A DNA stretch of 24,000 bases from Thermoleophilia bacterium (GTDB lineage: Bacteria; Actinomycetota; Thermoleophilia; UBA2241), in NCBI GenBank assembly GCA_036277455.1, contig DASUMX010000120.1, positions 1,082 through 25,081 on the forward strand, written 5' to 3'. The notes under the pieces were generated by a model. That model worked only from the letters and a program-made list of their open reading frames with translations, made no database searches and was not told the origin of the DNA. Made by a program: the position numbers and the translations under genes. Positions 7,908 to 18,274 of this stretch are shown here, piece by piece; the stretch's first letter is position 1; the number at the start of each line of letters is the position of its first letter.

Positions 7908-9614
7908 ATGGCTGGCTCCCGACAGACAGACCCGTTCGGCCCGGTGAGATCACGGCTCCTCGCCGTGGCGGAGTACCTGCGCGCGCGTCCTGTCCAGGAC
8001 TTCGTCGCAGGTGCGGCGCTCCTCATCATCGTGCTCTTCCCGTTCGCCTACATCGACCGCCGTGAGCAGCTGATCGGCGTCCCCGCCGCGATCGCCACGC
8101 TGATCATCATCGGCGGCGCGCTCGGCGGCGGTCCGCGCGTGGGCGCAGGCCTCGCCTTCGTCGGAGGCGTCGCCTACGACGTCCTCGTCATCACCGACCG
8201 CTGGCTGATCGCCGGCCCCACCACGATCGTGGTCGTGATCCTCTGGCTCGCGGCCGGGTTCGGCGTCGGGCTCCTGGGGGACCGGTACCGCGGCCAGGTG
8301 GCGCGCGCCCTCGACCAGGCGCACGACTCGCGTGACGCGCTCGACCGGGTGGTCGGGGCGACGCCGCTGTTCCACGCCCGCGGCGGCCCCGCGGCGGTGG
8401 CCCGGGCGATCTGTGACGTGGCCCTCGAGACCTTCGACTGCCAGCTCGCCGCGCTCTTCGCGATCGAGGGCGAACGGCTGCGACTGCTCGCCCGTTCGCC
8501 CTACCTCGCCAGGACCGCGGAGCGGCTGATCATGGAGCCGTCGTTCGAGCTGCAACAGGAGCTCGCCGAGAACCTGCTGCCCCAGTTCGTCCACGACGTC
8601 CGAGAACCGTTCGGCCCGCGCATGCCGCGCGCCGTCACCTCAGACCCCGACCAGGTCTCCGCGATCCGCGCGCCGGTGCTGCTCGACGACCAGCCCGTCG
8701 CGCTGCTCGCCCTCAGCTGGTCGCGCCGCATGCCCGAGCCGGAACGCGGCGACCTCGGCGTGGTGCAGCGCTTCGCCGAGCACGCCGCCGTCGCCCTCGC
8801 CCAGGCTCAGCGCGCCCAGGCCCAGCAGGACGTGGCCGCGCTCTACCGCCGGTTCCAGTCCAGCCTGTCCCCGGTGGTCAAAGTCGAGTCCGACCACATC
8901 AAGGTCGCCACCTACTATCGGCCGGGCGAAGCGCGCATGCTGCTCGGCGGCGACTTCATCGACGCCGTCACCCGGCCCAACGGGTCGGTGGCTGCGGTGA
9001 TCGGGGACGTCACGGGGCATGGGCCGGACGCAGCAGCGCTGGGGGCCAGCCTCCGCGCGGCGTGGCGCGCCCTCGCCCTCCGAGGGGCGTCCCTGCAGGC
9101 GAACATGAAGACGCTCAACAGCCTGACGCTGGACGAGAGCGACCGCGCCGAAGAGGGCGAGTCGGGCCTCGGCCTCCTCGCCACCGTCTGCGCGGTCGAG
9201 ATCGACGGAGCCGGCCGGCGCGCCCGCTTCGTCAACGCCGGCCACCCCATGCCGCTGCTGCTCGGCGCCGAGGTCGTCTCGCTCGAGCACACCCCGGGGA
9301 TGATGCTCGGCGTGGAGCAGTACGGCGACTGGGCGCCGCACGAGGTCACGCTCCCCGAAGACTGGGGCCTGCTGCTGTACAGCGACGGCATCGTCGAGGC
9401 CCGTTTGGGTCCCGGCACGCGCTCCCGGCTCGGGCTCGACGGGTTGCGGGCGGCGCTCGCCGACCTGTGGTTGCGGCGGGCGATAACGGCGGCGGACCTG
9501 GAGCGACTGGTGGAGGGCGTGCAGGCCGACAGGCAACACGTGCTCGAGGACGACGTCACGCTGCTGCTGCTCTCACACGACGGCCAGCGGCACGCGCACG
9601 GTCACGTGATCTGA
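7908..9614 (+). CDS. membrane-anchored GAF-domain PP2C/SpoIIE-family protein serine/threonine phosphatase
   Basis: 568 aa. About four N-terminal hydrophobic helices (aa ~35-125). A central GAF-like segment. C-terminal SpoIIE/PP2C motifs GGDFIDAV, AVIGDVTGHGPDAAALG, FVNAGHPMPLL, LLLYSDGIVEA. The exact start is uncertain (no clear SD). Confidence 0.85.
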   Translation: MAGSRQTDPFGPVRSRLLAVAEYLRARPVQDFVAGAALLIIVLFPFAYIDRREQLIGVPAAIATLIIIGGALGGGPRVGAGLAFVGGVAYDVLVITDRWLIAGPTTIVVVILWLAAGFGVGLLGDRYRGQVARALDQAHDSRDALDRVVGATPLFHARGGPAAVARAICDVALETFDCQLAALFAIEGERLRLLARSPYLARTAERLIMEPSFELQQELAENLLPQFVHDVREPFGPRMPRAVTSDPDQVSAIRAPVLLDDQPVALLALSWSRRMPEPERGDLGVVQRFAEHAAVALAQAQRAQAQQDVAALYRRFQSSLSPVVKVESDHIKVATYYRPGEARMLLGGDFIDAVTRPNGSVAAVIGDVTGHGPDAAALGASLRAAWRALALRGASLQANMKTLNSLTLDESDRAEEGESGLGLLATVCAVEIDGAGRRARFVNAGHPMPLLLGAEVVSLEHTPGMMLGVEQYGDWAPHEVTLPEDWGLLLYSDGIVEARLGPGTRSRLGLDGLRAALADLWLRRAITAADLERLVEGVQADRQHVLEDDVTLLLLSHDGQRHAHGHVI

Positions 9615-9617
9615 CGG

Positions 9618-9639
9618 CCGGCGGCGGCGCGGCCGCCGG
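9618..9639. terminator. GC hairpin between convergent genes (possible bidirectional terminator)
   Basis: CCGGCGGC (9618-9625) / GCCGCCGG (9632-9639) with a 6-nt loop. A second small hairpin GGCCGG-ccat-CCGGCC lies at 9641-9656. No U-tract, so this rests on structure only. Confidence 0.3.
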
Positions 9640-9668
9640 AGGCCGGCCATCCGGCCCGCCGCCGTCCC

Positions 9669-10406
9669 TCAGTCTGCGACGGCGGCCTCCGGGACGCCCG
9701 ACTCGAGCAGGTCCGGCAGCGCGCGCTGCAGCATGAACTCCAGCACGGCGTAGGCGCGGCGCATGTCGAAGTCGTCGTCGATGGCCTCCTGGATGGCCAG
9801 GCCGTCGACGACCGCCGTCATGAGCTCGGCGACGCCGAGGAGCGCCTCCTCGTCCGGATGCTCGGGGCAGGCCGCCGCCGGCTCCCCCTCGTGGCGCAGC
9901 CAGTCTCGCTTGATCTGGCGGTACGACGCGTAGGCGCGAGCCATGCGGCTCCGGAAGCTCTCGTTGCGCAGGGCGTACGGGAGGATGTCGAAGAAGACCC
10001 GGAACGAGCGCGAGAGACTGATGGTCCGCAGCCCGTCCACGAACCGCGGCAGTCGGTCCTCGCTCGTGACCGTGCTCATCGCGGCTGCGGCGTCCTGCTG
10101 GTCGTCGCGGAACACGGAGTCGATCATCGCCTCGACGAGGCCCTCCTTGTTCCCGAAGTAGTACTGGACCATCGCCGAGTTCTCGCCTGACTCCTGGGCG
10201 ATGGCGCGCAGCGTCAGGCCGGAGAAGCCCTTCTCGACGAGCACGCGCTGCGCAGCGGCCAGGATGTTGAGCGCCGGCGGCGACATGCCCTGCCGGGGGT
10301 CGCCGCCGGACGGCGCCTGACGGCTCGACGCGACGTGGCCGTTCGAGGCCGCCGGAGCGGCGGCGACGGGACGTCCGACGCTTGCGTCACGCTCGGCGCG
10401 GGCCAT
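9669..10406 (-). CDS. TetR/AcrR-family transcriptional regulator
   Basis: TetR helix-turn-helix LTLRAIAQESGENSAMVQYYFGNKEGLVEAMI follows a low-complexity N-terminal extension of about 55 aa. ATG 10286 is an alternative shorter start. Divergent from mmsA. Confidence 0.88.
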   Translation of the reverse strand: MARAERDASVGRPVAAAPAASNGHVASSRQAPSGGDPRQGMSPPALNILAAAQRVLVEKGFSGLTLRAIAQESGENSAMVQYYFGNKEGLVEAMIDSVFRDDQQDAAAAMSTVTSEDRLPRFVDGLRTISLSRSFRVFFDILPYALRNESFRSRMARAYASYRQIKRDWLRHEGEPAAACPEHPDEEALLGVAELMTAVVDGLAIQEAIDDDFDMRRAYAVLEFMLQRALPDLLESGVPEAAVAD

Positions 10407-10426
10407 CCGTGGTATCCCTCGTGTAG

Positions 10427-10455
10427 TTGAAGTTAATCACTTGATTGATTAGACT
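10427..10455 (+). promoter_or_regulatory. candidate mmsA promoter with embedded TetR-type operator
   Basis: -35 TTGAAG (10427-10432), 17-nt spacer, -10 TAGACT (10450-10455). The spacer holds the inverted repeat AATCA-CT-TGATT (10435-10446). Extra AATCA copies at 10471-10475 and 10484-10488. This is a conspicuous AT-rich patch in otherwise GC-rich DNA. Confidence 0.45.
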
Positions 10456-10503
10456 CCTTCAAGCCGCACCAATCAACCGTGAAAATCAGCGAGAGGAACG
10501 ACG

Positions 10504-12042
10504 ATGGCGGAGACCAAGACTGAGGTCAAGACGCTCGGCTACATGGTCGACGGCGAGTGGCGCGAGTCCAAGAGCGACACGTGGGTCGAGATCACCAACT
10601 CCAACACCGGCGAGGTCATCGCGCGCACGCCGATGTGCACCGAGGCCGAGGTCACCGAGGCCATCGAGTCGGCCAATCGCGCGTACCCCGCCTGGGCCTC
10701 CATGCCCATCCAGAAGCGCACCGAGATCCTGTTCACGTGGCGCCCCAAGCTCATCGAGCGCATGGACGAGATCGCCACGCTGGTCAGCACCGAGCTCGGC
10801 AAGAACCTCGACGAGGCGCGCGGCGAGGTCATCAAGATCATCGAGGCCATCGACATCGCCGTCGGCGCCCCGATGCTGATGAAGGGCGAGAGCCTGATGA
10901 ACGTGTCCACCGGGCACGACACGGTCAGCTACCGCGAGCCGCTCGGCGTGTTCGCCGGCATCGCGCCGTTCAACTTCCCGGCCATGATCCCGTTCGGCTG
11001 GATGCTGCCGATCTGCATCGCCTGCGGCAACACCTTCGTGCTCAAGAGCGCGAACTTCGTGCCGCTCACGAGCCACCTGCTGCTCGACATGCTCTACGAG
11101 GCCGGACTGCCCAAGGGCGTCGTCAACATGGTGACCGCCGAGAAGGAAGAGGCCGAAGTGCTGCTCAAGCACCCGGCCATCCGCGGCGTGAGCTTCGTCG
11201 GCAGCACGCCGGTCGGCAAGCACGTCTACTCCATCGCCGCCGCTCACGGCAAGCGCGTCCAGGCGCAGACGCAGGCCAAGAACCACGGCCTCGTGCTCGC
11301 CGACGCCTCGCTCGAGCGCACCGCCCGCGGCATCATCAACTCCACCTTCGGCTGCGCCGGTATGCGCTGCATGGCGCTCCCCGTGTGCGTCGTCGAGGAG
11401 TCGATCGCCGACGAGTTCGTCGCGCTCATGAAGAAGTTCGCCCTGGAGCGCTCGGTCGGCGACGCCACGCTGCCCGCGACCGAGCTCGGCCCGGTCGTGA
11501 GCAAGGCGCACCAGCAGTCGGTCCTGCGCTGGATCGAGACGGCGATCGAGGAAGGCGCCGAGCTGGTGCTCGACGGCCGCAACGTCACCGACGGCCTGCC
11601 GGACGAGCTCAAGGGTGGCCACTACGTCGGCCCGACGATCTTCGACCACGTGACCGAGGACATGCTCTGCGGCCGCGAGGAGTGCTTCGGCCCGATCCTC
11701 TTCGTCAAGCGCGTCAAGGACTTCGAAGAGGGCATCGAGCTCATGAACAACAACCCGTACGCCAACGGCTCGTGCATCTTCACCGAGAGCGGTTACCACT
11801 CTCGTGAGTTCGCGCGCCGCACGCACGCAGGCATGGTCGGCATCAACGTCGGCATCCCGGTGCCGGTCAGCTTCTTCCCGTTCGCGGGGCACAAGGACAG
11901 CTTCTTCGGCGACAACCACGTCTTCGGCAGGGACGGCTTCCAGTTCTTCACCGAGACCAAGTGCGTCACCACGCGCTGGTTCACCGAGGCCGACAAGAAG
12001 CAGAAGCAGGTCAGCACCTGGGAGGGCACCGTCAACCGCTGA
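10504..12042 (+). CDS. mmsA: CoA-acylating methylmalonate-semialdehyde / malonate-semialdehyde dehydrogenase (aldehyde dehydrogenase family)
   Basis: 512 aa. ALDH core FNFPAMIPFGWMLPICIACGNTFVLK. Catalytic Cys region FGCAGMRCMAL. MMSDH-specific C-terminal block GINVGIPVPVSFFPFAGHKDSFFGD. GAGAGGAA SD upstream of the ATG. Confidence 0.92.
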   Translation: MAETKTEVKTLGYMVDGEWRESKSDTWVEITNSNTGEVIARTPMCTEAEVTEAIESANRAYPAWASMPIQKRTEILFTWRPKLIERMDEIATLVSTELGKNLDEARGEVIKIIEAIDIAVGAPMLMKGESLMNVSTGHDTVSYREPLGVFAGIAPFNFPAMIPFGWMLPICIACGNTFVLKSANFVPLTSHLLLDMLYEAGLPKGVVNMVTAEKEEAEVLLKHPAIRGVSFVGSTPVGKHVYSIAAAHGKRVQAQTQAKNHGLVLADASLERTARGIINSTFGCAGMRCMALPVCVVEESIADEFVALMKKFALERSVGDATLPATELGPVVSKAHQQSVLRWIETAIEEGAELVLDGRNVTDGLPDELKGGHYVGPTIFDHVTEDMLCGREECFGPILFVKRVKDFEEGIELMNNNPYANGSCIFTESGYHSREFARRTHAGMVGINVGIPVPVSFFPFAGHKDSFFGDNHVFGRDGFQFFTETKCVTTRWFTEADKKQKQVSTWEGTVNR

Positions 12043-12096
12043 GGCGGCTGACGCGCCGGCCGCGGATGCGGCCGGCGACCGCTTCCCGAAGCGCTC

Positions 12097-12140
12097 GGGG
12101 GCGGAGGGTGGGCGATCAGCCCACCCTCCGCCCCCTTTTT
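12097..12140 (+). terminator. rho-independent terminator of mmsA
   Basis: Perfect 17-bp stem GGGGGCGGAGGGTGGGC (12097-12113) / GCCCACCCTCCGCCCCC (12119-12135), 5-nt loop GATCA, then TTTTT (12136-12140). Preceded by a second perfect 9-bp hairpin GCCGGCCGC-ggat-GCGGCCGGC (12055-12076). Confidence 0.85.
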
Positions 12141-12238
12141 CGTGCGGGGCCCCTCAGCGCGGAGCCACCGCCGACCGCCGTCGTGGAATCGGCGGCGACC
12201 GGGTAGGAACGTCGGCGAGACGACCAAAGGAGAACGAC

Positions 12239-12688
12239 GTGGCACACGCATTCCCGGAGATCACGGCGTACGGGCCCGCGCTGCGCTTCGCGCTCGAGGC
12301 GGAGCAGGCATGCGCCGACTTCGCCGCCGCGGCCGGCGTCCTGGCGCCGACGCAGGAGTGGCAGGACAAGCTGGAGGAGGTCGTCTGCACCCACGACGAC
12401 CGCGTGCAGAAACTGATGGCCAAGCAGGGGCAGCTCGGCGACAAGGCGTCGGCGCCGGCAGGCACCCTCAAGCGCGAGCCCTACCTGGGTACGCTCGACG
12501 CGGAGCCGGCCATCAGCTGGCCGGCCGTCGTGGTGCAGCTCGCCCAGGCCGAGGAGGACTCCGCGCGTTACCACGAGGAGTTCGCGATGCAGTGTGCCGA
12601 CACGCTGGAGCTGCAAGCGCGCCTGTTCGGCAAATCGGCGCAGCAGAACCGGGCATACGCCGCCGAGCTTCGGGAGCTGCTCGGCTAG
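12239..12688 (+). CDS. hypothetical small all-helical protein (possibly a ferritin-like four-helix bundle)
   Basis: GTG 12239 follows AAGGAG (12227-12232) at 6-nt spacing, downstream of the mmsA terminator. 149 aa, VAHAFPEITAYGPALRFALEAEQACADF...QLAQAEEDSARYHEEFAMQCAD...AAELRELLG. The ORF part upstream of 12239 crosses the terminator and is not coding. No family recognised with confidence. Confidence 0.6.
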   Translation: MAHAFPEITAYGPALRFALEAEQACADFAAAAGVLAPTQEWQDKLEEVVCTHDDRVQKLMAKQGQLGDKASAPAGTLKREPYLGTLDAEPAISWPAVVVQLAQAEEDSARYHEEFAMQCADTLELQARLFGKSAQQNRAYAAELRELLG

Positions 12689-13044
12689 CATCCGAGAACG
12701 GCGCGTGGACGAAGACGCGATGCGCGGCGCGGACGAGTTGCACCCGGCACGGAGTGGTCTGCCCTTCCGTCGCGCTGGGATCTCTCTGCGCAGCGGCAGG
12801 CGCATCCACCGGATCGAATTCCGTGGCGCGATCGCTCGAGAGGGCGGTGGGCCGGGGCGGGCGCCGGGAGGCGGCACCCGCCCCGGCCTGCTGGCGAGGG
12901 CGCTTGCGGTCGCCCTCGCGGAGCTCCCGGCGAGCACGCTTGCGGACACGCTCGCCAGAGCCGGACGGCGAGGCCGGGGAGGCCGTCGTCCGGCTGCCGG
13001 GGCGCGTACTTGGGGGACGCCCCGGGTGGTGCGGGGAGGCGGGG

Positions 13045-13072
13045 CGGGCGGCGCGTCACGCGTGACCGCCCG
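13045..13072 (-). terminator. hairpin 12 nt downstream of the ABC ATPase stop (possible terminator)
   Basis: CGGGCGG (13045-13051) pairs with CCGCCCG (13066-13072) and encloses the perfect palindrome GTCACGCGTGAC (13055-13066). No U-tract. Confidence 0.3.
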
Positions 13073-13083
13073 TCCCGTCTCCC

Positions 13084-14469
13084 CTACGTGGCCGCCTCCC
13101 CGGGCGGCGGGTCGCCACTGGCAGTCGGCGTGGGATCGTCGGCGGCGGCCGGCGCGGCCACACGGGCGGCGGCGGGACTGACGACCGGAGCTCGGCCGCC
13201 CGGCAGGCTCCGGCCGCGCACGGCGGCCAGCAGCGCCTCCTCGCCGGCGAAGAACTGGGCGCCGCCCTCGGCGAGGCCCGCGACGGCGCCGACGAAGTCG
13301 CTGGCGCGCACTCCTTCGTCGGCCCAGACGGGGATGCCGGCGGCGAGCGCGTCGCGCGCGGCCTCGAGGTTGCGCGCGTTACCGTGGCTCACGGGCACGG
13401 CGGTCACGACGACGAGGTCCGCCGCGCGCATGAGCTGCAGATTCTCCGCGTGCGCCTCTTCGCCCACCGGCGAGAACGGCGCCTCGACGGCCATGTGCAG
13501 GCCGAGCTCGCTGCCGGTCTCCTCGTCGGTGTCGAGTGCGTTGAGGACGCCGGCGGTGACTTCGTAGCCGGCGTCCACGAGCTCGCGCATCATGCCGGCG
13601 CCCGTCCCGCCGCCGCACACGAGGTGGACGCGGCCGCGGCGCTCGCCGCGCAGCCGCGGTGAGAACGTCAGGTACGTACGCCCGGCGTGCCGGTGCAGGT
13701 AGGCGCGCACGCCGTAGACGGCCTCCACCACCTCGGGCGCCAGCACCTCGTCCGGCGGCCCGAACGCCGCCACCTCGCCGTCACTCAGCACGAGCAGCTT
13801 GTCGAAGTAGTGCAGCGCCAGATTGAGGTCGTGCAGGATGCAGAGGACCGTGAGGCCGCCGGCGTTGAGCTCCTTGAGGAGGTCGAACAGGCGGAGCTGG
13901 TGAGAGACGTCCAGGGCCGAGGCCGGCTCGTCGAGCAGCAGGAGCGGCGCCTGCTGCATGAGCGCCTGGGCGAGCACCGCGAGCTGCTTCTCGCCGCCGG
14001 AGAGCTCCGAGAACCGGCGGCTCGCGAGCTCGGCGACCCCGAGACGCGCGAGCATCAGCTCGGGGTCGCCGCACGCCGCCGGGTCCTTGCCGCGGCAGTA
14101 GGCCCCCATCTCCACGACTTCGCGCACGGCGAGGTCGAAGTCGAGGTCGAAGTGCTGCGGTACGAGCGCGACCTCACGCGCCATGGCCTTACGCTTGTAC
14201 CGGCGCGTAGCCAGGCCCTTGACCAGCACCTCGCCGGCGACCGGCTGATGGATGCCGTCGATGAGGTCCACCAGCGTCGACTTGCCGCTGCCGTTGGGGC
14301 CGACGATGCCGACGAAGTCGCCGGCCTCGAGCGTGAAACTGATGCGCCGCAGGACGGGCCGCTCGTCGTAGGCGAAGTCCACGTTCTTGAGCGCGACGAG
14401 CGGCGCGTGCCGAGTCTCCCGCTCCGGGCTGGGCTCGGGGACGGCGGGGTGGTCCGGGGGCGTCGCCAT
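13084..14469 (-). CDS. FecE/BtuD-type (iron-chelate/cobalamin class) ABC transporter ATP-binding protein fused to an uncharacterised C-terminal alpha/beta domain
   Basis: Real start is ATG 14469 (MATPPDHP...), overlapping the permease TGA in TGATG. The 785-aa ORF upstream of it is the permease read out of frame. Walker A GPNGSGKST, signature LSGGEKQ, Walker B LLLLDEPASALD, H-loop ILHDL. The ABC domain ends near aa 272. It is followed by RVHLVCGGGTGAGMMRELVDAGYEVTAGVL...DLVVVTAVPVSHGNARNLEAA... and a Pro/Ala-rich tail. 461 aa total. Confidence 0.9.
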   Translation of the reverse strand: MATPPDHPAVPEPSPERETRHAPLVALKNVDFAYDERPVLRRISFTLEAGDFVGIVGPNGSGKSTLVDLIDGIHQPVAGEVLVKGLATRRYKRKAMAREVALVPQHFDLDFDLAVREVVEMGAYCRGKDPAACGDPELMLARLGVAELASRRFSELSGGEKQLAVLAQALMQQAPLLLLDEPASALDVSHQLRLFDLLKELNAGGLTVLCILHDLNLALHYFDKLLVLSDGEVAAFGPPDEVLAPEVVEAVYGVRAYLHRHAGRTYLTFSPRLRGERRGRVHLVCGGGTGAGMMRELVDAGYEVTAGVLNALDTDEETGSELGLHMAVEAPFSPVGEEAHAENLQLMRAADLVVVTAVPVSHGNARNLEAARDALAAGIPVWADEGVRASDFVGAVAGLAEGGAQFFAGEEALLAAVRGRSLPGGRAPVVSPAAARVAAPAAADDPTPTASGDPPPGEAAT

Positions 14470-15467
14470 CAGGCGCGCCTCCCGCGCCGCAGGAGGTACA
14501 CGAACAGCGGCGCGCCCACGAAGGTGGTGACCACGCCCACGGGGATCTCGTTGGGAGCGATGACCGTGCGCGAGAGCAGGTCGGCCACCACCATCATGGA
14601 GGCGCCGGCCAGCAGCGAGACCGGGAGCAGCCCGCGGTGTCCCGGTCCGACCAGCAGCCGCACGATGTGCGGCACGACGAGGCCGACGAACCCGATGATG
14701 CCGCTCACGGAGACGGCCAGCGCAGTCAGGACCCCGGCCGTCACCAGCAGCATCCGCTTGGTGCGCTCGACTTCCACGCCGAGCTCGAGCGCGCGTTTCT
14801 CCCCCTGCAGCATGATGTCCATCTCGCGCGTGAAGAACAGCGGCAGGACCATGAACGGGATCGTCACCAAGGCGATGCGCACGTCCGGCCAGCCACGCCC
14901 GGAGAAGCTGCCCATGAGCCAGTAGATGATCGCCGTCATGTCCTGGTTGGCCTTGATCATGAGCACCGTGACGACGGCGCTGGCGAGGTAGGCGATGGTG
15001 ACGCCGGCGAGCAGGAGGACGAACACGTCGATGCGGCCGCGCCGGCGCGCCGCCATCCACACGATGGCCAGCGTGCCGAGCCCGCCGACGATGGCCAGTA
15101 CCGTGATCCACGACAGGTTGCTGAGGTGGAGGACGATGCCGATGGTCGCCCCGAGCGCGGCGCCCGACGAGACGCCGGTGACGTACGGGTCGGTCAGCGG
15201 GTTGAGGAAGAGGTCCTGGAGGATCACGCCGGACACTGCCAGCGCCGCGCCGACGAGCGCCGCGGTGAGGACGCGCGGCATGCGGATCTGCCAGAAGATG
15301 GCGTTGTCGAGGTCGCCCGGGACCGGCCCCGCGAAGAGCAGTTGCCAGATCCGTCCCACGGACAGCGGGGCCGGTCCCAGAGCGAGCGCCAGCACGAGGC
15401 ACACCGCGAGCATGCCGGAGACCAGGAGGATCCCCGGCCACGTGCCTGTGCGGGCGAGCTTGCTCAC
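14469..15467 (-). CDS. FecCD-family (BtuC/FhuB-like) ABC transporter permease
   Basis: 332 aa, about 9-10 TM helices. Family-typical blocks RMPRVLTAALVGAALAVSGVILQ, NPLTDPYVTGVSSGAALG, GIIGFVGLVVPHIVRLLVG, IPVGVVTTFVGAPLFVYLL. GTG start in a GTGA overlap with the upstream stop. Confidence 0.92.
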   Translation of the reverse strand: MSKLARTGTWPGILLVSGMLAVCLVLALALGPAPLSVGRIWQLLFAGPVPGDLDNAIFWQIRMPRVLTAALVGAALAVSGVILQDLFLNPLTDPYVTGVSSGAALGATIGIVLHLSNLSWITVLAIVGGLGTLAIVWMAARRRGRIDVFVLLLAGVTIAYLASAVVTVLMIKANQDMTAIIYWLMGSFSGRGWPDVRIALVTIPFMVLPLFFTREMDIMLQGEKRALELGVEVERTKRMLLVTAGVLTALAVSVSGIIGFVGLVVPHIVRLLVGPGHRGLLPVSLLAGASMMVVADLLSRTVIAPNEIPVGVVTTFVGAPLFVYLLRRGRRA

Positions 15468-16426
15468 TGCGCCGTCTCAGCCTCCGGATGGATGTAGCCG
15501 GCCAGCGCCCTGAGGCCTTCCGCCAGGCGCGGGCCGGGGCGGGCGATGATGCTGTCGTCGATGATGTAGACCTTGCCGTCCTTGACGGCGGTGAGCTCGC
15601 CGAAGCCGGCGCGCGCGTCGATCTCGCCGGGCTCGCTCATCGAGCCGGAATCGGCGATGTAGACCTGCGGGTCGGTCTGCACCAGCACCTCGGTGCTGAA
15701 GTTCGGGAACCCGCTCCCGGCCGTGGCGCCGATGTTCTCGCCGCCGGCGATGGTGATCATGTCGTCGATGAACGTGTCGGCGCCTGCCGTCATGAGCGGC
15801 TTGCCGTAGATCTCGAGGAAGGTCGTCGCCGCGGGCAGGTCGCCGACCGCGTCCTGGACTTCCTGCCGGGCGGCGGTCATCTCGGCGGTGACCGCGGCGG
15901 CGCCGTCCTCGGTGCCGGCGAGCTTGCCGACGTTCTCGATGGTGGCGATGACGCCGTCATAGGTCTTGGGGTCGACGACGTAGACCGTCATCCCGAGATC
16001 CTCGAGCTTGCCGCGCAGGTCGGCCTGGATCCCGCCGGCCGCGAGGACCAGGTCCGGCGCGAACGAGGCGATCTTCTCGACGTTGGGGTTGGCGAAGTCG
16101 CCGATCTTGGGCAGCGCCGTGGCCTCCTCGGGATAGTCGTCGTAGCTGGTGCCGGCGACCATCTTGTCGCCGGCGCCGACAGCGTAGGCGATCTCGGTGT
16201 TGGCGGGCGCGAGGCTGACGATCGCCTCCGCCGGCTGTTCGAGGGTGACCTCGACGCCGGAGTCGTCGGTGACGGTGATGGGGCCGGCGGCCGCGGCCGC
16301 GGACGGGGAGCTCGAGGCGGCGGTGTCGTCGCCCGAGCCGCAGGCGCTCAGGGCGGCGGCGCCCAGGGTGAGCACGGCGACGAGCAGGAGCGCCGCGGTG
16401 AGGCGGCCGAAACGGATGGTGGTCAT
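15464..16426 (-). CDS. BtuF/FhuD-like periplasmic binding lipoprotein (Peripla_BP_2 class) of the type-II importer
   Basis: Signal peptide plus lipobox ALSAC-G. Body with IVSLAPANTEIAYAVGAGDKMVAGTSY, PDLVLAAG, and a C-terminal DSIIARPGPRLAEGL block typical of B12/haem/siderophore binding proteins. ATGA overlap with the upstream gene. Confidence 0.9.
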   Translation of the reverse strand: MTTIRFGRLTAALLLVAVLTLGAAALSACGSGDDTAASSSPSAAAAAGPITVTDDSGVEVTLEQPAEAIVSLAPANTEIAYAVGAGDKMVAGTSYDDYPEEATALPKIGDFANPNVEKIASFAPDLVLAAGGIQADLRGKLEDLGMTVYVVDPKTYDGVIATIENVGKLAGTEDGAAAVTAEMTAARQEVQDAVGDLPAATTFLEIYGKPLMTAGADTFIDDMITIAGGENIGATAGSGFPNFSTEVLVQTDPQVYIADSGSMSEPGEIDARAGFGELTAVKDGKVYIIDDSIIARPGPRLAEGLRALAGYIHPEAETAQ

Positions 16427-17247
16427 GACGGTGGTGACTCCCTTCGATCTTTGACGAGACGAGAACGGACGATGTCGACGAGCTGGGGTGACGCTCCGGC
16501 CGGCGGGGCGGCGGGCGTCACGGTCGCCCCCAGCCGCATGTCGCGGAGGAGGTGGTGGCCGTCGCGCTCCTCGACGCCGTCCCAGACGAGCGGGACGGGG
16601 CGCGAGAAGAGCGGAGCGGCGGTGACCATGGTGTGGTACTCACCCTCCTCGCCGCAGGCGTCGGCGCCGGCGGCCTCGAGACGGGCGATGACGGCGTCAT
16701 CCAGCACGAGGCCGAGGAACTCGGGGCTGAGCTTGGAGGAGTCGACGGCGACGATGGTGGCGCGGGAGTCGCCGGCGAGGAACTCGGCGAGCAGCCGGCG
16801 GCGCGGCTCCTGCCAGAGCGGCAGATGGCAGCCGAGGCCGGCGACCTCGCAGACACCCTCGACCCAATCACGGTGCGCCTGCAGGTCGATGTCGCCGAAC
16901 ACGCCGGCCTCGATGCCCTGCGCGCGCAGCTCGTGGAGGAGCGCGACGAAGGTGGACTCGTAGCCGTCCCACGTGGTGGCGCGGGTGACGAGCGGTACGC
17001 CGAGCGCGGCGGCCTGCTCTTCGAGCAGTGCGAGCGGCAGGCCGTGGCCGCGGCTCACGCCGCCATCCTCGTGCAGCATGCAGACGAGGGCGGCCGCCGC
17101 GCCGCCGCGCTCCACGGCGCGCTGCAGCGCGAGGTACGCGTCCTTGCCGCCGCTCCACGAGCAGAAGAAACGGGAAGCGGCGAGCGACGCGCCGGCGGAC
17201 CTGCCGTTGGCGGACGGGACGTCGGTCCGCGGCGCGTCACTCGCCAT
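16423..17247 (-). CDS. PP-loop ATP pyrophosphatase of the MJ0570/Dph6 N-terminal (ATP_bind_4) family
   Basis: 274 aa. PP-loop SWSGGKDAYLAL and the family-specific GEEGEYHTMV motif. GGGAGGG SD about 5 nt upstream of the ATG, inside the 3' end of the Fur gene (11-nt overlap). Confidence 0.85.
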   Translation of the reverse strand: MASDAPRTDVPSANGRSAGASLAASRFFCSWSGGKDAYLALQRAVERGGAAAALVCMLHEDGGVSRGHGLPLALLEEQAAALGVPLVTRATTWDGYESTFVALLHELRAQGIEAGVFGDIDLQAHRDWVEGVCEVAGLGCHLPLWQEPRRRLLAEFLAGDSRATIVAVDSSKLSPEFLGLVLDDAVIARLEAAGADACGEEGEYHTMVTAAPLFSRPVPLVWDGVEERDGHHLLRDMRLGATVTPAAPPAGASPQLVDIVRSRLVKDRRESPPS

Positions 17248-17689
17248 GCTCGCCCTCCCTGGCGCTGCGACAGGAGGGGCAGATGCCGTACACCTCGAGG
17301 TGGTGGCCGTAGATGCTGAACCCGGTGGCCGCCGCCAGCCTGGCCTCGAGCTCGGCGACGTCGCCGTCGCCGTCGAAGCGGACCACCGTGCGGCAGACGC
17401 CGCAGATGAGCGGGTGGCTGTGGCCGATGGGCGGGGCGATGTAGCAGATCTCGCCGCGCCCGTCCTGCACGCGGGCCAGCAGTCCGAGATCGCTGAGGAG
17501 CTGGACGCTGCGGTACACGGTGGCCTGGCCGACGCCGTCGCTGCGCAGGGCGTCGGCCGCCTCGGTGATGGTGACCGCGCGGTCGGCGCCGGCGAAGAAG
17601 TGCCAGATCTGGCGCCGCTGCCGCGTGAAGGGAATGCCCTTCTGGCGGAAGACTGCCTCGATCTCGTGCGCCGGCTTCGGGTCGGTCAA
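17237..17689 (-). CDS. Fur-family metalloregulator (metal specificity not assignable)
   Basis: 150 aa. Winged-helix N-domain (RQRRQIWHFF...ATVYRSVQLLSDLGLL). Metal motifs GHSHPLICGVC and GHHLEVYGICPSC (two CxxC pairs plus His clusters). TTG start at 17689 preceded by GGGAG. Confidence 0.9.
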   Translation of the reverse strand: MTDPKPAHEIEAVFRQKGIPFTRQRRQIWHFFAGADRAVTITEAADALRSDGVGQATVYRSVQLLSDLGLLARVQDGRGEICYIAPPIGHSHPLICGVCRTVVRFDGDGDVAELEARLAAATGFSIYGHHLEVYGICPSCRSAREGEHGE

Positions 17690-17711
17690 CGTTGTGCTCC
17701 CGGGGAATCCA

Positions 17712-17741
17712 GTTGAGAACCGTTCTCAACGGTGTTGAGAA
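17712..17741. promoter_or_regulatory. Fur-family operator: three alternating GTTGAGAAC half-sites
   Basis: Perfect palindrome GTTGAGAAC-C-GTTCTCAAC (17712-17730) plus a third copy GTTGAGAA (17734-17741). This gives two overlapping inverted repeats. The core TGAGAAC-N-GTTCTCA has the 7-1-7 geometry of Fur-family boxes. It lies between the predicted -10 and the fur start codon. Confidence 0.6.
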
Positions 17742-17770
17742 AAGCTATCAACCACATGACGGCGCGTCAA
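17742..17770 (-). promoter_or_regulatory. candidate promoter of the fur-importer operon
   Basis: On the minus strand: -35 TTGACG (17770-17765), 17-nt spacer, -10 TAGCTT (17747-17742). The operator half-sites start immediately downstream. Confidence 0.4.
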
Positions 17771-17932
17771 CCTCTTCGGCTCGACCGTCTCCGGTCGCTG
17801 CCGGACCCTACGCGAGACCAGAGACGCCGAGAGCGATATCGTGAGCGGATCAGGGTCGACGCCGGCCGGCGAGGTCGCATGCCATCCCGCCTTCGCGGTC
17901 GGCCTTCAACACGGCGCGAACGGAGGAGGGCG

Positions 17933-18274
17933 ATGATCTGTCCGGAGTGTGGCGCGGAGTACGTGCCCGGATTCACCCGTTGCGCGGACTGCCTCGTCGA
18001 CCTGGTCGAGCCGGGCTCGCAGGACGATGCACCCGAGCCGGCGCGCGGCGAGGCCCTCGCCGAGCCGGTCTGCGTCTACCGCGCCACCCAGCGTGGTCGT
18101 CTTCCGCTCGCCGAATCGGTCTTGCGGTCCGCCGGCATCCCCTTCGTCGCCTCAGGAGAGCACCTGCAGCAGCTCACGGGTCTCGACGTCTTCGGTCCTG
18201 CGGAGCTCTACGTGGCGGCCTGCGACGTAGACGACGCCCGCGCCGTGCTCGCCGGCCTCGACGGGGAGCAGTGA
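17933..18274 (+). CDS. zinc-ribbon + DUF2007-like (putative signal-transducing, PII-like fold) small protein
   Basis: ATG 17933 follows GGAGGAGGG. 113 aa. N-terminal CPECG...CADC zinc ribbon, then VCVYRATQ...AESVLRSAGIPFVASGE...ELYVAACDVDDARAVLAGL, which matches the DUF2007 pattern. The Arg-rich 17732-17932 part of the ORF is judged non-coding. Confidence 0.7.
   Translation: MICPECGAEYVPGFTRCADCLVDLVEPGSQDDAPEPARGEALAEPVCVYRATQRGRLPLAESVLRSAGIPFVASGEHLQQLTGLDVFGPAELYVAACDVDDARAVLAGLDGEQ

Follow-up and report, generated by a model that had tools for sequence, protein, structure and literature searches.

A candidate corrinoid uptake and salvage operon with a predicted Fur-family autorepressor in Thermoleophilia

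We analyzed a stretch of 24,000 nucleotides from a Thermoleophilia bacterium (GenBank assembly GCA_036277455.1, contig DASUMX010000120.1; this whole stretch is hereafter called the window) and focused on five adjacent minus-strand genes that encode a Fur-family repressor, a PP-loop ATP pyrophosphatase, and the binding protein, permease and ATPase of an ATP-binding cassette (ABC) importer. The locus is probably an operon for uptake and salvage of corrinoids (the vitamin B12 family), of the kind that joins a DUF71-B12 enzyme to a BtuFCD importer, and would be autoregulated by a repressor that responds to cobalt status. Judged by sequence and gene context, the repressor stands where other phyla have a cobalamin riboswitch. 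The pairing of the PP-loop enzyme with the importer is not new, being a published prediction of 2012 (PMC3541065). The new element, as far as comparative analysis of sequences can tell, is a conserved autoregulated Fur-family repressor in the place of the riboswitch, which belongs to a clade linked to cobalt and cobamides.

Organization and conservation of the operon

The operon and its candidate control elements are listed below in the direction of transcription.

17742-17770, minus strand: promoter-like element, TTGACG (17770-17765), a 17-nt spacer and TAGCTT (17747-17742)
17734-17752, no strand assigned: operator box 1, an imperfect 19-bp Fur-box-like palindrome GTTGATAGCtTTTCTCAAC over the -10 element
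17712-17730, no strand assigned: operator box 2, a perfect 9-1-9 palindrome GTTGAGAAC-g-GTTCTCAAC downstream of the -10 element
17237-17689, minus strand: Fur-family repressor gene (150 amino acids; TTG start; GGGAG ribosome-binding site at 17701-17697)
16423-17247, minus strand: DUF71-B12-type PP-loop ATP pyrophosphatase gene (274 amino acids; ATG at 17247-17245)
15464-16426, minus strand: BtuF-like substrate-binding lipoprotein gene (320 amino acids; lipobox LSAC with Cys29)
14469-15467, minus strand: FecCD/BtuC-type permease gene (332 amino acids)
13084-14469, minus strand: ABC ATPase gene (461 amino acids; TAG stop at 13086-13084; C-terminal MJ0874/PF27219 domain and low-complexity tail)
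13033-13084, minus strand: GC-rich hairpin beginning at the stop codon, a weak candidate for a terminator, with no U-tract

The five genes are chained by overlaps, as an earlier note on this DNA had claimed, and re-reading of the junctions in the sequence gave the claimed overlap in every case. The TGA codon of fur (17239-17237) overlaps the ATG of the PP-loop gene by 11 nt, the PP-loop and binding-protein genes share ATGA at 16426-16423 (4 nt), the binding-protein and permease genes share GTGA at 15467-15464 (4 nt), and the permease and ATPase genes meet in TGATG at 14471-14467 (1 nt), which places the ATPase start at 14469 and not at 14471. The profile hidden Markov model search that the note had proposed for all five proteins returned the Pfam domains FUR (E 7e-13), Diphthami_syn_2 (E 1e-33), Peripla_BP_2 (E 6e-32), FecCD (E 4e-92) and ABC_tran (E 2e-30).

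Using one genome per species, we scanned for homologous loci, obtained 80 of them, and checked their gene order by tblastn with six protein pieces. The order and strand of the five genes are identical in every sufficiently long Thermoleophilia/Actinomycetota locus (about 43 species), and this synteny persists down to 56% identity of the PP-loop protein. The PP-loop protein also has a counterpart of 100% identity in a Thermoleophilia metagenome-assembled genome. The adjacency of the PP-loop gene and the importer in relatives, on which the note had made its proposal depend beforehand, is thus retained. The fur and PP-loop genes overlap by 11 nt in 24 of 42 loci, by 4 nt in 8 and by 8 nt in 3; the 4-nt overlap of the binding-protein and permease genes recurs in 30 of 37 loci, and a permease/ATPase overlap of 1 or 4 nt in 26 of 31, with the caveat that the choice of starts in these counts is biased toward those near the upstream stop codon.

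The promoter region is conserved as well. More than 30 species share the promoter, the two boxes, the ribosome-binding site and the position of the fur start; at that position the start codon is TTG, GTG or ATG. Box 2, whose arms are 100% complementary, is exact or near-exact in about 30 species, while box 1, centred 22 bp away, recurs in many orthologous loci. The window contains two matches to the box, against 0.01 expected by chance, and across 1.33 Mb of loci the box (at most 3 mismatches) is confined to the promoter upstream of fur. The palindromes have the 19-bp architecture (9-1-9 / 7-1-7) of Fur-family operators, and binding of the repressor to them is predicted. A generic scan for sigma-70 promoters and terminators between 12800 and 18000 gave zero sites and also missed the operon's own promoter; therefore, the promoter assignment relies on conservation and on the TAnnnT pattern of the -10 element, which is characteristic of actinobacteria. 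At the other end of the operon the hairpin folds with -50 kcal/mol (z = -1.98).

The earlier description of these genes as one coupled unit behind a palindromic operator agrees with these results: the overlaps, the promoter and the box are present and kept across species, and the five genes probably form a single, translationally coupled transcript.

The window as a whole has no match to a cobalamin riboswitch or to any other Rfam family, and 7 clade loci examined have no RF00174 aptamer ahead of the operon. The operon leader of about 45 nt is too short for a cobalamin aptamer.

The other genes of the window (a peptide ABC transporter, an aldehyde dehydrogenase, a GDSL lipase, a GNAT protein and others) are unrelated to the operon. 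The divergent neighbour of the fur promoter (17732-18274, plus strand) encodes a small protein with a DUF2007 domain and a zinc-ribbon-like CxxC...CxxC segment. The stretch of about 1 kb that separates the aldehyde dehydrogenase gene from the operon end (12043-13083) holds no recognisable gene; a possible small plus-strand open reading frame in it, ending at 12688, has no Pfam match.

The PP-loop enzyme, the importer and their B12-linked relatives

In 2012, de Crecy-Lagard et al. divided the DUF71/COG2102 family into Dph6 and a 'DUF71-B12' subgroup, which is marked by ENGE[F/Y]H instead of EGG[E/D]xE; 75 of its 102 members adjoin btuCDF, 18 adjoin cbiB, and the predicted role is B12/corrinoid salvage (PMC3541065). 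The window protein (PF01902, E 1e-33) carries the PP-loop motif SGGKD at residues 32-36, within SWSGGKD (30-36) that is invariant in the alignment, and EEGEYHT at residues 200-206. Its segment GEEGEYHT aligns to GEGGEFET of PF0828, so that His takes the place of Glu188. At position 2 of the motif the window protein has E, where the published form has N. The pattern ExGE[FY]H is matched by 76 of 78 full-length homologues; the other two were missed by the regular expression. The score against the Dph6 equivalog TIGR03679 is 85.6 bits (cutoff 197.3), and BtuFCD-like genes are adjacent in the window and in about 43 species, which is the clustering with B12 genes expected of the subgroup. By motif and gene context we therefore place the protein in the DUF71-B12 subgroup.

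This assignment bears out the previous view that the protein is a PP-loop enzyme of the Dph6 family without a part in diphthamide synthesis, in view of its SGGKD, its His motif and its score below the Dph6 cutoff. To our knowledge, bacteria do not make diphthamide. Two further statements of the earlier note need correction. Bacterial members of the family were said to have no assigned role, and the composition of the operon to have no characterised counterpart; in fact, a role in B12 salvage was predicted in 2012, with the subgroup still biochemically uncharacterised, and DUF71/COG2102 genes next to btuCDF were published then (PMC3541065). The literature searched reports no assay of the DUF71-B12 subgroup.

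The PP-loop protein opens with the conserved peptide MASDAPRTSVPSANGRSxGASLA (residues 1-23; 17179-17247, minus strand), after which comes a linker whose length varies; the peptide is missing from more distant members of the clade.

The transporter genes form the complete triad of a type II importer (Peripla_BP_2, FecCD and ABC ATPase), as had been read from the sequence, and models of corrinoid transporters rank first for its parts. For the binding protein (PF01497) the ranking of NCBIfam models is PGF-CTERM substrate-binding protein, BtuF, IsdE, and the best solved relatives bind B12 (5ysc, E 7e-31; E. coli BtuF, 1e-19), closely followed by the heme-binding ShuT (1e-18). The best model for the permease (PF01032, E 4e-92) is haloarchaeal-type BtuC PRK09535 (290.8 bits, cutoff 461), and for the ATPase it is the 'corrinoid ABC transporter ATPase' PRK09536 (263 bits, cutoff 537), which spans residues 23-372 and hence part of the C-terminal extension. 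This extension of about 150 amino acids (residues about 276-425; 13195-13644, minus strand) is annotated in precomputed data as PF27219 'MJ0874' and is modelled by AlphaFold2 (AF2) as a Rossmann-like domain (pLDDT 90). A structure search with the extension returned only generic neighbours (phosphoglycerate kinase, dehydrogenases), and a local Pfam search gave no match to it.

The cobalt importer CbtJKL of S. meliloti was considered as an identity for the transporter and discarded, given the low similarity of the binding protein to CbtJ (26% identity) and a different profile ranking. CbtJ falls in the EitA/F420-0 type profile group and scores 26 bits against the BtuF model, whereas the window binding protein scores 108 bits (cutoff 234) and, together with the binding protein of a btuB-linked riboswitch locus, defines a range of 108-120 bits.

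Outside the clade, cobalamin riboswitches precede the homologues of Desulfobulbales, Scalindua and Planctomycetota, which are 44-50% identical. One such locus runs riboswitch, TonB receptor (BtuB-type), DUF71, exbB, exbD, tonB, binding protein, permease and ATPase; another consists of cbiB, riboswitch, permease, ATPase, DUF71, binding protein and CbiZ, with cobU alongside. Within the clade, 11 of about 43 loci, and 3 contigs besides, have cob genes at most 10 kb away, and the neighbours seen at this distance (cobU, cobT, cobS, cobC, cbiB, cobQ, cobA or cbiZ) each have a riboswitch of their own. In one example, riboswitch-cobU-cobT-cobS-cobC-cbiB-cobQ lies just upstream of the operon; in further contigs cobA or cbiZ abuts the fur gene. 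Cobalamin riboswitches of cobU-cobT-cobS-cobC-cbiB-cobQ or of cobA are found directly beside Fur-headed operons in the same genomes. The adjacent riboswitch units are located as follows.

Locus L004: 394-6590
Locus L030: from 2157
Locus L032: from 3727
Locus L037: from 4182
Locus L031: 9141-9330
Locus L157: 735-903
Locus L156: 73-244

RNA control and predicted protein control of B12-related genes thus coexist within a few kilobases. The riboswitch and cob neighbours, together with membership in DUF71-B12, support the suggestion of the earlier note that a corrinoid-like ligand may be processed in the cytoplasm.

DUF71 and CbiZ genes are side by side in four loci of Planctomycetota, Scalindua and one clade contig (L077, 9986-12266; L069/L072, about 8822-10624; L158, 5500-7197). 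These neighbours contradict the strict anti-correlation reported for bacteria (PMC3541065) and argue that DUF71 is not merely a substitute for CbiZ and that the two enzymes are not interchangeable.

The Fur-family repressor and its relatives

The regulator matches PF01475 with 49.2 bits (cutoff 23.1) and scores under every NCBIfam equivalog cutoff for Fur, Zur, PerR and Irr, the best being PerR (51 against 180), with Zur at 42.9 against 167. By sequence, the nearest solved structure is Mycobacterium tuberculosis Zur (2o03, E 2e-14), and identity to solved Fur proteins is only about 25-30%. The AF2 model (pLDDT 94) predicts a canonical Fur fold, with a TM score of about 0.7 to holo Fur and Zur structures. 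A subfamily could not be assigned from solved structures, among which Zur, Fur, PerR, Nur and Mur score about equally.

The metal ligands are more informative. The four cysteines of the structural zinc site, C96, C99, C137 and C140 (Cys4), are invariant in the 42 regulator orthologs, and so are H90, H92, D110, E115, H129, H130 and E132. In all or nearly all of these orthologs the positions of the canonical regulatory site hold A38, A/V72, P86, S91, P93 and R104, and the regulator therefore lacks the site represented by H37/D85/H91/H93/D104 of PerR and by site 1 of Zur. When mapped on Zur, the sensing residues D62, C76, H81 and H83 correspond to A72, P86, S91 and P93, the N-terminal His position to A38, and the Asp/Glu position after the first CxxC to R104. 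By this alignment the canonical metal site is lost, and the remaining predicted ligands are the His2-Asp/Glu-His set of 'site 3 / D-site'.

An exhaustive search of 50%-identity representatives yielded only 10 relatives of the regulator at E <= 1e-30. All six contexts examined at 55% identity or above (range 55-63%) carry cobalt or cobamide genes: cbiM or cbiM-cbiN in two, cobU in one, and the present operon with cob genes in three. The fur gene precedes cbiM, with a divergent cobalamin riboswitch, in locus L156; it precedes cbiM and cbiN, with the box TGAGAA-N3-TTCTCA, in L152; and in L157 it lies next to a riboswitch-cobU unit. The three other versions of the present operon are flanked by cobT, cobU, cobC, cobQ, cbiZ or cobA. 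More distant relatives (41-50% identity) have AT-rich TGATAA boxes and are found with znuA-type transporters twice and otherwise with ArsP_2, HlyD or a methyltransferase. On the evidence of these alignments and neighbourhoods, the regulator clade marked by A38 and GH[ST]HP is tied to cobalt and cobamide acquisition. The literature search found no report of a Fur-family regulator of cobalt or B12; the nearest case is Mycoplasma genitalium Fur, whose effects extend to a CbiMNQO-like system and to the content of nickel.

The earlier note had called the operon 'Fur-gated' and had guessed at a dedicated metal sensor. A Fur-family gene does head the operon, with a Fur-type operator in front of it; control by iron, one sense of the term, would go beyond these results. 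The guess of a dedicated sensor is favoured by the cobalt- and cobamide-linked relatives of the regulator. What makes the regulator unusual had escaped the note, namely its position in place of a riboswitch, the missing canonical metal site and the link of its clade to genes for acquiring cobalt and cobamides.

Among metagenomes, the exact 19-bp box occurs in 70 contigs, of which 27 contain the present operon. In other high-GC contigs the identical palindrome adjoins feoB, ferritin-like, TonB-receptor, CbiX and ferredoxin genes (position 255 of L136, 10717 of L141, 4668 of L109, 705 of L098, 2367 of L096 and 8085 of L089). The feoB and CbiX contigs are from Gemmatimonadota, and the TonB receptor implies a diderm. 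Near iron genes the palindrome looks like an iron-Fur box common to distant high-GC phyla. A global iron Fur, which these matches suggested, was dropped as a candidate: the boxes belong to other organisms and are silent on the regulon of the clade.

Taken together, the data suggest the following mechanism. The BtuF-like lipoprotein would capture a cobamide or cobinamide outside the cell, and the BtuC-type permease with the ATPase that bears the extra MJ0874 domain would import it, as family membership and gene context indicate. In the cytoplasm the PP-loop enzyme may adenylate a corrinoid carboxylate with ATP; by analogy with Dph6 and the chemistry of the family, the simplest outcome would be that an amide is formed or restored. 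The repressor, as a dimer or a pair of dimers, is predicted to bind both boxes on one face of the DNA. Since the boxes cover the -10 element and the transcription start, it would block the five-gene transcript, its own gene included. The operon would then be expressed when cobalt status falls, and corrinoid scavenging would be switched off when cobalt is sufficient.

Riboswitches already control the adjacent cob genes, so the repressor probably reads a signal other than that of the riboswitch. Because its nearest relatives head cbiMN and the neighbouring cob genes are under riboswitches, Co(II) is the most likely co-repressor among the ligand options, a choice that we hold at slightly less than even confidence. 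More tentatively, the regulator could represent a new functional class of Fur proteins that senses cobalt status (Co(II), or possibly a corrinoid) through site 3 alone and represses btuFCD-DUF71 and cbiMN(QO) genes.

Alternative explanations, significance and comparison with known systems

Several observations weigh against a cobalt-responsive corrinoid operon. Inspection of the flanking genes found no cob genes in the window. Only two close relatives of the regulator are linked to cbiM, and the operator shares its type with the iron-Fur boxes of Caulobacter and Gemmatimonadota. The corrinoid models that rank first for the transporter parts all score under their equivalog cutoffs, and heme binders are nearly as similar to the binding protein as E. 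coli BtuF. With regard to the enzyme, the authors of the 2012 study preferred an amidohydrolase that replaces CbiZ, not a ligase (PMC3541065). DUF71 proteins with the His motif also occur with no BtuFCD or cobalamin riboswitch nearby in Planococcus (L048, L051, L054, L056, L057, L060), Jeotgalibacillus (L068/L070/L076) and others (L062, L044); neither a riboswitch nor a transporter was found near the DUF71 loci of Planococcus, Jeotgalibacillus, Acidimicrobium and Anaerolineae. The His motif by itself therefore does not guarantee a B12 context, and some proteins that carry it may serve a purpose other than B12 metabolism. Finally, the explanation draws throughout on sequence, synteny and models, and its ligand, substrate and transcript are putative.

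Some of these points would fit an ordinary Fe(II)-sensing Fur that controls a transporter for heme or an iron chelate, with the PP-loop enzyme processing the ligand: the operator matches validated iron-Fur boxes of Caulobacter, feoB, ferritin-like and TonB-receptor genes of other high-GC contigs have the same palindrome beside them, and the binding protein also resembles the heme binders ShuT, HmuT and IsdE. However, two of the iron-gene contigs belong to Gemmatimonadota and the TonB-receptor contig to a diderm, while within the clade the box is seen at the present operon only. None of the orthologs has the canonical Fe-sensing site, and the close relatives of the regulator accompany cbiMN or cob genes and not iron genes. 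The homologues of the PP-loop gene that lie under B12 riboswitches with cbiZ, cobU and cbiB, and the cob genes that neighbour the operon in many clade members, also speak for corrinoids, and we consider iron control unlikely.

An importer of cobalt ions or a cobalt chelate that resembles CbtJKL, under a cobalt-sensing Fur, would make the likeness to BtuF misleading and the role of the PP-loop enzyme separate. There is a precedent in CbtJKL itself, a Co(II) importer that was initially taken for a transporter of B12 (PMC7689651); its pSymB locus consists of a riboswitch followed by binding-protein, permease and ATPase genes, and relatives of the present regulator head the cobalt importers cbiMN. 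The distance from CbtJ in sequence and profile group, the constant pairing with DUF71-B12 and the frequency of cbiZ, cobA and cobU nearby point instead to an organic corrinoid substrate, which renders a cobalt-ion importer improbable. If the transport and salvage roles are as proposed, the repressor could still sense the corrinoid itself and thus be a protein counterpart of the B12 riboswitch, much as Irr works with heme. Its targets, btuFCD here and cbiMN in relatives, are typical of B12 riboswitches (PMC7689651), and with the ion site lost several invariant His residues could ligate the corrin cobalt. A second B12 sensor would be redundant, however, where cobalamin riboswitches lie beside the operon in the same genomes; the retained residues are those of the standard Fur 'site 3' ion site, and such a sensor is without known precedent, so that we regard it as rather improbable. 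A corrinoid operon under a repressor of cobalt status thus remains the explanation that we prefer.

If the regulator does represent a new functional class, it would be the first protein sensor known for cobalt or cobamide import, acting alongside B12 riboswitches in the same genomes, and would add a metal or cofactor to the list of Fur, Zur, Mur, Nur, PerR and Irr. According to a review of 2021, import of cobalt and B12 is under riboswitch feedback and a protein sensor for a cobalt importer is not known (PMC7689651); our literature search found no later report of one. A regulator that lacks the canonical site would reveal if site 3 by itself suffices for sensing by a Fur protein, and the compact autoregulated five-gene unit is suited for a test of the DUF71-B12 enzyme, whose role was predicted in 2012 and is still putative. 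Because Thermoleophilia abound in soil, the way in which they obtain B12 bears on the sharing of corrinoids in soil communities.

The closest known system is DUF71-B12 as described in 2012, with which the operon shares SGGKD, ExGE[FY]H, the adjacency to a BtuFCD-type importer and relatives in riboswitch, cob and cbi contexts. Actinobacteria contributed only one member to that study (1 of 206 genomes), and a protein regulator was not part of its description (PMC3541065), whereas here a Fur-family gene is predicted to be translationally coupled to the enzyme gene. The haloarchaeal BtuFCD system (PRK09535, PRK09536 and the PGF-CTERM binding protein) supplies the best models for the permease, ATPase and binding protein; however, the scores are well below cutoffs, and the binding protein here is a bacterial lipoprotein and not PGF-CTERM anchored. 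Dph6 (PF0828/MJ0570; PDB 3rjz, 2d13) shares the fold family and the ATP-binding residues, and the proposed reaction is modelled on the way in which it adenylates a carboxylate that is then amidated, although its EGGExE motif becomes EEGEYH here.

Among regulators, the iron Fur of Caulobacter crescentus recognizes a GC-rich 'Fur-alpha' box, with validated examples that include ATTGAGAACCATTCTCAAA (PMC2724300). It shares with the present system a 19-bp 9-1-9 operator, TTGAGAAC-N-GTTCTCAA, placed over the promoter (PMC2724300), but differs in that the present regulator has no canonical metal site, its box is found only at its own operon, and its genomic context links it to cobalt and B12 and not to iron. 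Zur (FurB 2o03; Streptomyces coelicolor 3mwm) has the same Cys4 and 'site 3 / D-site' ligands, and zur genes likewise lie in or next to an ABC importer operon. Zur differs in its half-sites (TGAAAA or TGATAA, against TGAGAA here) and in its neighbours (znuABC, against B12 and cobalt genes here), and of its essential sensing residues D62, C76, H81 and H83 none is kept, their positions being taken by A, P, S and P. The gene classes regulated here are the same as in the riboswitch-controlled btuB/btuFCD, cbiMNQO and cbtJKL operons; the difference is that a predicted repressor with a palindromic operator takes the place of the riboswitch, while the neighbouring cob genes keep theirs.

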